Part shown: positions 1-2,257 of the stretch, piece after piece
Position numbering within the stretch: position 1 is the stretch's first letter
How the letters are laid out: each line of letters begins with the position of its first letter
Source: a plasmid
Reading direction: 5' to 3' (one strand)
Assembly (NCBI RefSeq): GCF_056746865.1
Contig: NZ_JBWKMP010000010.1
Length of the DNA: 2,257 bases
Program-made: the position numbers and the translations under genes
The notes under the pieces: model-generated
What the model was told of the DNA's origin: nothing
Database searches by the model: none
What the model saw: the letters and a program-made list of their open reading frames with translations, nothing else

Positions 1-837
1 AACGTCCTTAAGCACACCACCCGTCGCCACAAAACGGCGCTTATGTACCTGGCGTGTTAACTCTAGGAACCATTCAGGATCGACCAGCATGTCGGCGGGC
101 TTTGTAGAATATTTCAGTGTTTCAACCACCACCCCGCGCAGTTGATCCACCACAGAACAGGGCAACGATTCACCGTCTTTCGGTTTTCTGGACTTCACAA
201 CCCTGATGTCGACGTTCGGGTCATACTCCACCCGCAGACAGTCGCGCCACAACTCCACCCATCGGGCATGTTTCACATAACCATCACCGGACAACATCGA
301 GGGGGAAACCATCAGCAGGGTGTGGAAATGGGGATGAGCACTGCCGTCCTTGCCGCGGGTGACTTCCGTCGTGCGCACCCAACCCAGCACGCCGCGAAAC
401 TCTTTGCGATCTTTCAGGCGCTGGAAGGCCGCATTCATCACGGTCAGGGTGTCGCCAAGCTCCGTAATCGGACAGTTACGGACGGTCAGGGTCAGGAACA
501 GCCAGCGTGCATCAGGATATTCCGCAACGATCTTTGGCAGGGACTGATAGAAACGGGCTTGCCACATCAGGGAACGCCTCCACTGACAGATCGGACAGTG
601 CCGGACCCGACAGAACCGCGCATCACGTAACCGCAGGCGCGTTTCTCCGGTTTCCTCGTTGGTGGACCACCCAAAACGCAGAATGCCGCTACAACCCTCC
701 ACGCGTTCGCCGTAGCGTTCAAATCCGGCAGCCCGCAGATAAATTCCGCCCACATCATCGGAAATACTCCGGTGCTCATCCCACGTTTTGTCCGCAGGGG
801 AGTAATCCGCCAGATTCTGAAGTTCAGGGTTTTCCAT
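1..837 (-). CDS. Rolling-circle replication initiator, Rep_1 (pC194/pUB110-type HUH) family; 5' partial gene, start at 837, 3' end beyond window start
   Basis: Manual translation of the minus strand from ATG (complement of 835-837) is open for 279 codons to position 1: MENPELQNLADYSP...FLTLTVRN...HPHFHTLLMV...VETLKYSTKP.... It carries a Cys cluster CRVRHCPIC (612-586), motif I FLTLTVRN (498-475), HUH motif HPHFHTLL (336-313) and catalytic Tyr motif KYSTK (114-100) with Glu four residues upstream, the same layout as pC194 RepA. An in-frame TAG (850-852) sits just upstream of the ATG. Not in the ORF track because no stop lies inside the window. Confidence 0.9.
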   Translation of the reverse strand, partial: MENPELQNLADYSPADKTWDEHRSISDDVGGIYLRAAGFERYGERVEGCSGILRFGWSTNEETGETRLRLRDARFCRVRHCPICQWRRSLMWQARFYQSLPKIVAEYPDARWLFLTLTVRNCPITELGDTLTVMNAAFQRLKDRKEFRGVLGWVRTTEVTRGKDGSAHPHFHTLLMVSPSMLSGDGYVKHARWVELWRDCLRVEYDPNVDIRVVKSRKPKDGESLPCSVVDQLRGVVVETLKYSTKPADMLVDPEWFLELTRQVHKRRFVATGGVLKDV

Positions 838-974: not shown

Positions 975-1420
975 GACCGCTAAAACCAAAATACACTCAA
1001 AACCATTTCGGAGCAAATTGCCGTTCAGCCCAGTCCTGACAAGGTCTAGAGGCAAATTTGAATCCCAGAGTTATCCCTTAAGTATAAATACAAGGATCGC
1101 GCGCGAGATTTGCTCAAATTTCGAGCTATTTTTTTAGCCCCCCAAAGCCACACATCCCACCCACTTACACCCATCTCATCCACAGACTTTCACCCCGAAT
1201 TTGTGAACAACAAAAACAGCCTCACAGGTGGTTGGCCTCACTCCGTGACACCAACCACCACCACCAGTATCTTCCCCGTGCCATCGTCAATCACAAAATC
1301 GGAACCCACGCCGGAGGCGCGGGACCCCGCGATTTTCTGTTTGACGAGTTCGGGAACGGTGAGCGGGACGCGGAATTTTTTCGCGTGCCGTGAGGCGTTG
1401 GCGGGGTGTCGGGGCGAAGC

Positions 1421-1478
1421 CCTGACCAGGTGGGGAATGTCTGAGCGAGCGTGCGCGGTCCGACATTCCCACATCCTG
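1421..1478. repeat. Left arm of a perfect 58-bp inverted repeat (partner 1826-1883)
   Basis: cctgaccaggtggggaatgtctgagcgagcgtgcgcggtccgacattcccacatcctg is the exact reverse complement of 1826-1883. Imperfect similarity continues about 17 bp outward (to about 1403) and a few bp inward. Confidence 0.95.
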
Positions 1479-1586
1479 CCCCGATTTTTTCGCCAGAACG
1501 CTGGCAGAGCATCGGCAGTTCTGCGCCGTTAAGCCCTCCGCAGGAGCGCACAGTTTCCCGACGAAGGAGAGAAACGTCTAAGTACG

Positions 1587-1616
1587 CATCCGCACTTAAC
1601 TCGCGGATGATTTTTG
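1587..1616 (+). terminator. Intrinsic-terminator-like hairpin inside the inverted-repeat spacer (+ strand)
   Basis: Stem catccgc (1587-1593) pairs with gcggatg (1603-1609), 7 bp; loop of 9 nt; followed by ATTTTTGG (1610-1617). No T-run in the minus-strand orientation. Confidence 0.4.
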
Positions 1617-1825
1617 GCACCGCAGCCACCACAGCTACGCAAAAATTTCGGCGACCGGACAGCAAATCATTCTGCCGTTTTCGTGACGCAGCCGTTCCGC
1701 GCAATCGACAAACTGGCAGTACAGAAAACTCACGAAGTGCGCACTTATACAAACTTCACTTTGTTTCGTTTGTCGTGCGGTCTGCGACGCTCAAAAAAAC
1801 CGAGAAACGGCGGGAACTTTCGGGA

Positions 1826-1883
1826 CAGGATGTGGGAATGTCGGACCGCGCACGCTCGCTCAGACATTCCCCACCTGGTCAGG
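1826..1883. repeat. Right arm of a perfect 58-bp inverted repeat (partner 1421-1478)
   Basis: Exact reverse complement of 1421-1478; imperfect similarity continues outward to about 1900. The arms are separated by a 347-bp spacer (1479-1825). Confidence 0.95.
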
Positions 1884-2052
1884 ACTGCGCCCGACACCCT
1901 CGACACCGTGCCAAATGCACGTTAAAAAATCATTGCGCGCTTCTGGCAAACCTTCAGAGTCTGTTGCCGTGATAGCCAATATGTCAGAAGCGCGCTAAAA
2001 ACGATTCTGACGCGGTGAAGCATCAAATGTAAGGGGATTGCATTCCGGTAAT

Positions 2053-2104: not shown

Positions 2105-2257
2105 TTATTTCTGTTTTGGCTTATCCATTGTGCGATCGCGGCGATACTTTTTAGCCACCGCCCGCCATGAAAACGCCAGACGCGATCCGTCATCCGCACC
2201 CTCTGCCATGCCATCTGCCATAATCAAATCCTCGTTCGTTTCCCGCTCCAGTTGCAA
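2105..2257 (-). CDS. 3' end of an unidentified minus-strand ORF (open to the window edge), or a complete 38-aa basic small ORF starting at ATG 2219-2221
   Basis: Minus frame from 2257 is open for 50 codons (...LQLERETNEDLIMADGMAEGADDGSRLAFSWRAVAKKYRRDRTMDKPKQK*) and ends at TAA (complement of 2105-2107). The other two minus frames hit stops within 11 and 22 codons. An internal ATG (2219-2221) has GAGGA (2229-2233) 7 nt upstream. A strong terminator lies just downstream. Confidence 0.45.
   Translation of the reverse strand: MQLERETNEDLIMADGMAEGADDGSRLAFSWRAVAKKYRRDRTMDKPKQK

Follow-up and report, generated by a model that had tools for sequence, protein, structure and literature searches.

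What is the short hairpin that lies nested within each arm of a large inverted repeat on this small plasmid, and which protein would recognize it? The window, that is, the whole stretch of DNA that was analyzed (2,257 bp), is a complete circular rolling-circle plasmid opened within its sole clear gene, rep. The larger inverted repeat has 73-nt arms at 1412-1484 and 1820-1892 (96%). An earlier note, made from the letters alone, had proposed that a 9-bp stem inside each arm marks a structured recognition element rather than a simple duplication, comparable to the subterminal hairpins recognized by HUH enzymes or to origin or packaging hairpins.

The nested repeat and the plasmid that carries it

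The 9-bp stem was confirmed, with GGGAATGTC (1433-1441) being the exact reverse complement of GACATTCCC (1462-1470), as was its mirrored copy, in that 1834-1871 is the exact reverse complement of 1433-1470. The loop, which had been put at 20 nt, turned out to be shorter: the repeat runs further inward, giving 18-nt arms that are complementary at 15 of 18 positions with 2 nt between them. Secondary-structure prediction for the 38-mer as single-stranded DNA gave a fold of -11.4 kcal/mol (z = -4.1), a stability reached by 0 of 200 shuffles. At least one perfect 9-bp stem with a loop of 3 to 30 nt was present in 21% of dinucleotide shuffles of the window. A perfect 9-mer stem is thus not rare by chance, and the significance of the hairpin rests on the extension of its stem and on homology. 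When the entire segment from 1395 to 1910 was folded as a single strand, arm-to-arm pairing prevailed (-167 kcal/mol, z = -14.5) and the nested hairpins were absent. Arm-to-arm pairing is thus much the more stable state when the plasmid is wholly single-stranded, so that on this molecule the nested hairpin has to arise kinetically or with protein assistance.

The rep product (329 amino acids, read from 837 to 1 and on from 2257 to 2105) matched Rep_1 (PF01446, E = 2.6e-85), and this Rep_1-family gene was the only recognizable gene on the circle, as in pBuzz-like plasmids. Relatives found by megablast formed a family of 1.98- to 2.8-kb plasmids in E. coli and Salmonella, with annotations that comprise rep and at most one hypothetical ORF. 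The closest was p88COLEC-4 (E. coli, 2,257 bp, Col(MP18) replicon), with 94.8% identity over the full length; in the collections searched, no record exceeded about 96% identity over most of the window. Just past the rep stop codon, at 2056-2077 on the minus strand, a GC-rich 9-bp stem with a T-run is the likely rep terminator. It is overlapped by a weak match to isrK (2054-2161), the sole match, below threshold, when the whole window was scanned against Rfam with a permissive cutoff; none fell at the nested hairpin. Between the candidate double-strand origin and the left transfer origin (both in the table), two further hairpins were seen within 1227-1259 and 1284-1347, one with 15-nt arms (87% identity, with a perfect 9-bp core) and one with 18-nt arms (89%, with a 28-nt loop); these could belong to a single-strand origin.

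Table. Features of the window. Positions count from its first letter; a slash marks a predicted nick.
Feature	Positions	Strand	Remarks
rep gene, 5' part	1-837	-	Rep_1, PF01446; runs over the circular junction into 2105-2257
rep gene, 3' part (final 50 codons)	2105-2257	-	In-frame continuation of 837-1
Candidate double-strand origin (Rep nick region), TCCTTGTATTTATACTTAAGGGATAA	1071-1096	-	Invariant in the window and 10 relatives
Left orphan oriT, IncI-complex (R64/B/O/K/Z) type	1402-1489	+ (nicked strand)	97.7% identical to the pECOED sequence upstream of mobA(nikA)-relaxase
8-bp inverted repeat GTCGGGGC-GAA-GCCCTGAC, "repeat B" of R64-type oriTs	1408-1426	+	Nearly invariant in 36 copies, 95% paired
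18-bp imperfect inverted repeat, "repeat A" (the nested hairpin)	1433-1470	+	15/18 paired, outer 9 perfect
Left nick region, ACATCCTG/CCCCG	1471-1483	+	Predicted nic 1478/1479, 8 nt past the repeat; position by homology
MOBQ-like oriT motif, GTTTCCC..GAGAAAC then TAAGTACGC	1553-1587	+	87% to the sequence upstream of the MobA/MobL gene of 5,167-bp Col156 plasmids
MOBQ-like oriT motif, ACAAAC..GTTTGT then ATAAGTGCGC	1739-1773	-	83% to the pSE11-6 mobC-mobQ intergenic region
Right orphan oriT, same hairpin type	1815-1902	- (nicked strand)	95% to the left copy over 81 nt
Right nick region, ACATCCTG/TCCCG	1821-1833	-	Predicted nic 1826/1825; by homology
Mirror hairpin, repeat A of the right oriT	1834-1871	-	Exact reverse complement of 1433-1470
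Weakened 8-bp repeat of the right oriT, GTCGGG-CGCAGT-CCTGAC	1878-1895	-	One base lost and one C>T relative to relatives

Homology to transfer origins and compensatory change

The sequence of the arm, about 90 nt, had a similar match in 3,231 plasmid records of PLSDB, 1,925 of which were typed as conjugative. The nik locus was inspected in eleven conjugative or MOBP plasmids, and in all eleven the match was single copy and lay directly upstream of nikA-nikB. It stopped 12 to 15 bp short of where nikA (annotated mobA) begins; the relaxase gene, nikB, comes next. By family matches in these plasmids, the accessory protein is NikA-like (PF21983) and the relaxase is a MobA/VirD2-like nuclease (PF03432); R64-type NikA also matched PDB 2BA3, the NikA ribbon-helix-helix domain. 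The identity between the window arm and pECOED (IncK2/Z typing) extends through the hairpin, which is the same in both, base for base. The R64-like plasmid pSTM7 has the flanks of the window, GGGGTGTCGGGGCGAAGCCCTGACCAG and CACATCCTG/TCCCG, and a wholly different hairpin, GCAATTGTAATAGCGTC..GACGGTATTACAATTGC, yet this too is an inverted repeat.

The layout of the arms is that of R64-type origins of transfer (oriTs). The minimal oriT of this type lies directly upstream of nikA and holds two sets of repeats (17 bp and 8 bp), the longer of which belongs to the NikA binding site and varies among plasmids with differing NikA (PMC3817090). In the window, the nick core ACATCCTG/Y was found at 1471-1479 on the plus strand and at 1833-1825 on the minus strand, the 17- to 18-bp imperfect repeat ends (at 1470) 8 nt 5' of the predicted nick, and the 8-bp repeat lies farther from the nick, intact in the left copy and weakened in the right. 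Judged from that lesion in its sequence, the right oriT may be less efficient. Among 36 aligned oriT copies from conjugative and small plasmids, ATC.TG was invariant (36/36), and the fourth base was C in 34 and T in two IncL/M-like copies (ATCTTG). The nic of the IncM oriT, ACATCTTG/T, has been called "similar to that of the IncI1 plasmids" (PMC8125031).

The nested hairpin is, with high confidence, the 17- to 18-bp imperfect repeat A of an R64-type (IncI-complex, MOBP) oriT, on a plasmid that would move by means of a relaxase supplied in trans. MobA/VirD2-type relaxases belong to the HUH superfamily. The suggestion of an HUH enzyme was therefore right in kind, given the adjoining PF03432 relaxase of the homologous loci, and wrong as to the partner, which would be NikA and NikB of a helper instead of the plasmid's own Rep. 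Of the proposed analogies, the origin stood, as an origin of transfer, and the transposon end, the packaging site and the replication origin did not. The segment from 1433 to 1470 is accordingly predicted, from sequence and from the literature (PMC3817090, PMC5863519), to be the hairpin for NikA recognition and for termination of transfer.

The same 36 copies bear on whether the repeat is maintained as a structure. Their flanks and nick core were nearly invariant, while the hairpin took 24 distinct sequences. Compensatory changes were abundant: 8 of the 19 pairs of the hairpin helix had changed on both sides, one pair, for example, being U-A in 14 sequences, G-C in 8 and C-G in 6. Paired cells made up 92% of the hairpin and 93% of the whole three-helix structure, and fell to 34 to 44% when the 3' partner was slid by one to three columns as a control. 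The observed covariation was reached by 0 of 500 shuffles, the 24 hairpin sequences being related and hence non-independent. The outer nine pairs were unpaired in 11 of 315 cells, so the uncompensated breaks of the 9-bp stem that the earlier note had named as evidence against its view are not what the homologues hold. Between them, oriT homology and these changes bear out a structured recognition element rather than a simple duplication. An additional helix, between CCAGGTG and the nick core (helix 2), was also tried; it was nearly invariant, with one pair broken in 7 of 35 sequences, and so uninformative.

The two strands of the hairpin did not behave alike. At non-Watson-Crick positions, the nicked strand showed 46 cases of G·T and 3 of A·C. 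A G·T on the nicked strand is a C·A on the other, and the former can pair whereas the latter cannot; an excess of G·T over A·C on the nicked strand is what would be expected if pairing were selected on that strand. Frequent exposure of that strand as single-stranded DNA, with a bias toward C>T mutation, could account for part of this asymmetry.

A pattern scan with the conserved flanks across 100,044 species genomes returned 31 matches, most of them by chance within GC-rich coding regions. The true matches were one Escherichia contig and about ten contigs of 0.4 to 2.3 kb that hold one small oriT-bearing sequence in unrelated "genomes." Nine of these short contigs, nearly identical and with an R64-like oriT variant, were noted from assemblies labeled Flagellimonas, Clostridium, Corallococcus, Micromonospora, Bradyrhizobium, Rhizobium, Acinetobacter and Paramuribaculum; their probable source is a contaminating E. 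coli plasmid, small (~1.55 kb) and of Col(MG828) type. In NZ_CP019265.1, a 54.7-kb plasmid, the left flank of the oriT (27 nt, GGGGTGTCGGGGCGAAGCCCTGACC) matched at 10 places. Two small oriT-bearing plasmids, p13C1079T-3 (7,475 bp) and pKC25-20925_4kb, resemble head-to-tail multimers of four and two units, respectively, and are either assembly artifacts or true multimers.

Helper specificity, proposed mechanism and competing explanations

The NikA proteins of the eleven inspected plasmids have a variable N-terminal, DNA-binding half and a nearly invariant C-terminal half (residues 61 to 110), and the grouping by N-terminal half coincides exactly with that by hairpin type. Identical NikA is encoded by the three plasmids that share the hairpin type of the window, and the NikA of pECOED and pRM10466 is of the WP_001291058.1 type. 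Across 1401-1500, the window and p88COLEC-4 differ at 14 positions, 13 of them in 1432-1469 (797-834 of p88COLEC-4) and one at the base after the nick, with identical flanks. Differences so confined indicate that the hairpin acts as a swappable cassette for helper specificity. Both arms carry one hairpin type in the window, pB, pPM18 and p7_020022, and the arms differ in type in p88COLEC-4, pRHBSTW-00176_7, pF200-4 and NZ_OZ040276. The sequence of the repeat arms would thus decide which helper is usable, the flanks and nick core being common to the whole plasmid complex. Because its hairpin is unlike that of the R64-like pSTM7, the window plasmid is predicted to use a helper of B/O/K/Z type and not R64 itself. 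A 78-amino-acid ORF at 1238-1474 on the minus strand, annotated as "hypothetical protein" in relatives (WP_065898629.1, WP_000263637.1), starts within the oriT hairpin; it is probably an annotation artifact, given that this hairpin is exchanged among closely related plasmids. MOB typing of pBuzz-like relatives varied between "mobilizable" and "non-mobilizable" despite the same kind of oriT.

For the window plasmid we infer NikA binding, nicking and mobilization from sequence and by analogy with R64. A co-resident conjugative plasmid of IncB/O/K/Z type would supply NikA, NikB and the transfer apparatus. NikA, a ribbon-helix-helix protein, would bind the nick-proximal repeat arm in duplex DNA and position the relaxase NikB, which would cut 8 nt downstream of the repeat, at ACATCCTG/Y. 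The cut strand would be transferred 5' end first, so that the repeat would reach the recipient last; there, the two arms would fold together into a hairpin within the transferred single strand, which the relaxase would recognize so as to terminate transfer and rejoin the circle. For R64, the nick-proximal arm suffices at initiation while the complete repeat is required at termination (PMC5863519, citing Furuya & Komano 2000), and these requirements in R64 and R1162 are read there as duplex recognition at initiation and recognition of a folded single strand at termination. Transfer from the left origin would deliver the plus strand, and transfer from the right origin the minus strand. Since the copies are inverted, the transferred strand would never contain a second origin in cutting orientation, by which premature termination and deletion between the copies would be avoided. 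Arm-to-arm pairing would compete with the hairpin at termination, yet pBuzz is efficient in transfer.

Some of the evidence for a hairpin can be read in another way, namely, that the repeat serves solely as an operator or as a palindrome bound by NikA in duplex DNA, the single-strand hairpin being either never formed or without function. Ribbon-helix-helix proteins such as NikA are a class that binds duplex repeats, complementary variation of the arms, with its two-sided changes, fits a symmetric duplex site equally well, and on the window plasmid local folding has a competitor in arm-to-arm pairing. What favors the single-strand hairpin is the 46:3 ratio of G·T to A·C, unexpected in a duplex, where both are equal mismatches of symmetry, together with the R64 literature, in which a need for the inner arm alone at initiation and for the whole repeat at termination is taken as recognition of a single-stranded hairpin (PMC5863519). 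We therefore regard a purely duplex role as unlikely. It is far less probable still that the hairpin is the plasmid's own rolling-circle replication signal, either a Rep hairpin at the double-strand origin or a single-strand origin, toward which the earlier note had leaned. The window does encode an HUH Rep, and such origins often have hairpins. However, pJNE082640-4 and a second plasmid (L055), with rep genes 99.3% and 99.6% identical to that of the window, have different hairpin types, and about 1,900 conjugative plasmids of theta type, which lack this Rep, have the same sequence once, ahead of nikA. The hairpin did not covary with Rep, and an invariant CTTGTAT block typical of this Rep family sits at 1071-1096. 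This uncoupling of hairpin type from Rep and the presence of the invariant block elsewhere argue against Rep as the partner and against a replication signal at the hairpin. The block is invariant in relatives whose rep genes are only 75 to 99% identical, and 1071-1096 (minus strand), a likely Rep nick region, is a better candidate than the hairpin for the Rep nick site; its position on the minus strand would make the minus strand the displaced one. We take TCCTTGTATTTATACTTAAGGGATAA, with its CTTGTAT block, to resemble the CTTGATA nick core of pC194/pUB110-type origins.

Two further explanations, each with hardly any probability in our estimate, concern the arms as mobile ends and the hairpin as RNA. 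The 73-nt inverted repeat flanks 335 bp and its outer ends begin with GGGG like those of the Tn3 family, as though a miniature transposable element ended in these arms, with the nested hairpins as subterminal sites for an HUH or Tn3-type transposase. Against this, the arms are single and at a fixed position beside nikA in conjugative plasmids, relatives can have two arms of different hairpin types, the arm-flanked segment keeps one place and one orientation with respect to rep in 10 of 10 relatives examined, and the window has no transposase gene; the marks of HUH transposons of the IS200/IS605 and IS91 types (a mobile unit, a transposase and varied sites) were thus missing. A transcription terminator or regulatory RNA could be suspected from the T-run at 1484-1489 after the left copy. 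That run begins 13 nt past the stem, however, a terminator scan did not flag the site, the right copy has no T-run, and the hairpin had no Rfam match. Repeat A of an R64-type oriT remains the reading that we carry forward.

Neighboring motifs and relation to known systems

Between the arms lie two MOBQ-like motifs, one per strand, each with a short inverted repeat followed by TAAGT(G/A)CGC (TAAGTACGC or TAAGTGCGC). The matching regions are 1721-1801, for the mobC-mobQ intergenic region of pSE11-6, and 1529-1591, for the sequence upstream of the Col156 MobA/MobL gene, and about 1,160 small mobilizable plasmids matched these inter-arm pieces. The minus-strand motif was kept in 11 of 12 other aligned sequences and altered in pKC25-20925_4kb, and its repeat showed a compensatory change from ACAAAC/GTTTGT to ACAATC/GATTGT in pPM18 and pSE11-6. 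All four predicted nick sites, two I-complex and two MOBQ-like, converge inward on 1588-1738. Tentatively, the ~500 bp from 1400 to 1900 may be an organized cluster of four origins, two MOBP and two MOBQ-like, with two per strand and with hairpins as swappable helper-specificity cassettes, exchanged from arm to arm and from plasmid to plasmid. In such a cluster, the inward direction of all four nick sites would bring the central ~150 bp (1588-1738) into the recipient first, whatever the helper or strand. If that were true, 2-kb plasmids would be generalist hitchhikers on conjugative and on other mobilizable plasmids. As many as five oriTs on one plasmid have been recorded (PMC10123127).

Several other observations concern this segment. 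In pJNE082640-4 (~1846-1868, compared with 1553-1575 of the window), the loop of the plus-strand MOBQ-like hairpin is inverted (GTTTCTCTCCTTCGTCGAGAAAC versus GTTTCCCGACGAAGGAGAGAAAC), which looks like a hairpin flip with the stem preserved. The 136-kb Klebsiella plasmid pmk1, typed as nonmobilizable, has at ~1493-1594 an I-complex-type oriT with no adjoining nikA, close to a copy of the MOBQ-like motif, and this suggests a pBuzz-like oriT block integrated into a large plasmid. Inversion of the inter-arm segment, by recombination or relaxase action, was not seen in ten relatives. The conserved inter-arm half (1640-1815) was considered as a single-strand origin and rejected, as its folding on either strand was no better than that of shuffles (z about 0).

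Orphan oriTs explain the spread of plasmids without transfer genes, and the repeat arms decide which helper carries the hitchhiker. The window is a clear example, as the whole difference in specificity from its closest relative lies within the 38-nt hairpin. Since the biology is established, the value of the present analysis is in correct annotation, and the additional MOBQ-like origins are a modest lead.

The feature itself is already known, as the oriT pair on a pBuzz-like rolling-circle plasmid: like members of that class, the window has two I-complex-type oriTs in inverse orientation and no relaxase gene. The two-oriT arrangement of pBuzz was reportedly published by Moran & Hall in 2019 (Plasmid 101:10-19). 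According to PMC9282650 and PMC11389934, pBuzz is a 1,982-bp rolling-circle plasmid with two inversely oriented B/O-type oriTs, only rep besides and no relaxase, and it is mobilized at high efficiency by a co-resident B/O plasmid; pBuzz-related plasmids bear oriTs of other Inc types (same sources, with PMC7448864 and PMC8765060). In Salmonella pB (NC_005002, 1,983 bp), both arms are 98.8 to 98.9% identical to the left arm of the window. Unlike these two plasmids, the window is 275 bp longer and, relative to pB, it belongs to the Col(MP18) lineage, has a rep gene only about 75% identical in DNA and carries an extra MOBQ-like motif (1553-1587).

The oriTs of R64 (IncI1) and of the I-complex (IncB/O, K, Z and I-gamma) share with the window the flanks GGGGTGTCGGGGCGAAGCCCTGACCAG ... 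CACATCCTG/YCCCG, the 8-bp repeat and, at the same place, a 17- to 18-bp imperfect repeat with 8-nt spacing to the nick core. In contrast to those, the window copies are orphans with no adjoining nikA/nikB, and there are two of them, inversely oriented, on a 2.26-kb rolling-circle plasmid. The RP4/IncP oriT, served by TraJ and TraI, is alike by description, with an inverted repeat bound by an accessory protein and an ATCCTG/C nick core a few bases on, and unlike in its repeat sequences and proteins. Likeness to the RP4/IncP oriT figures in the title of Furuya & Komano 1991 (a reference of PMC3817090), and PMC5587640 remarks on conserved nick motifs. The MOBQ oriT of R1162/RSF1010 also has one repeat beside the nick, of which the inner arm serves initiation and the whole serves termination (PMC5863519), but its nick core is TAAGTGCGC and its relaxase is of another family, so that the hairpin studied here is not of the MOBQ type.
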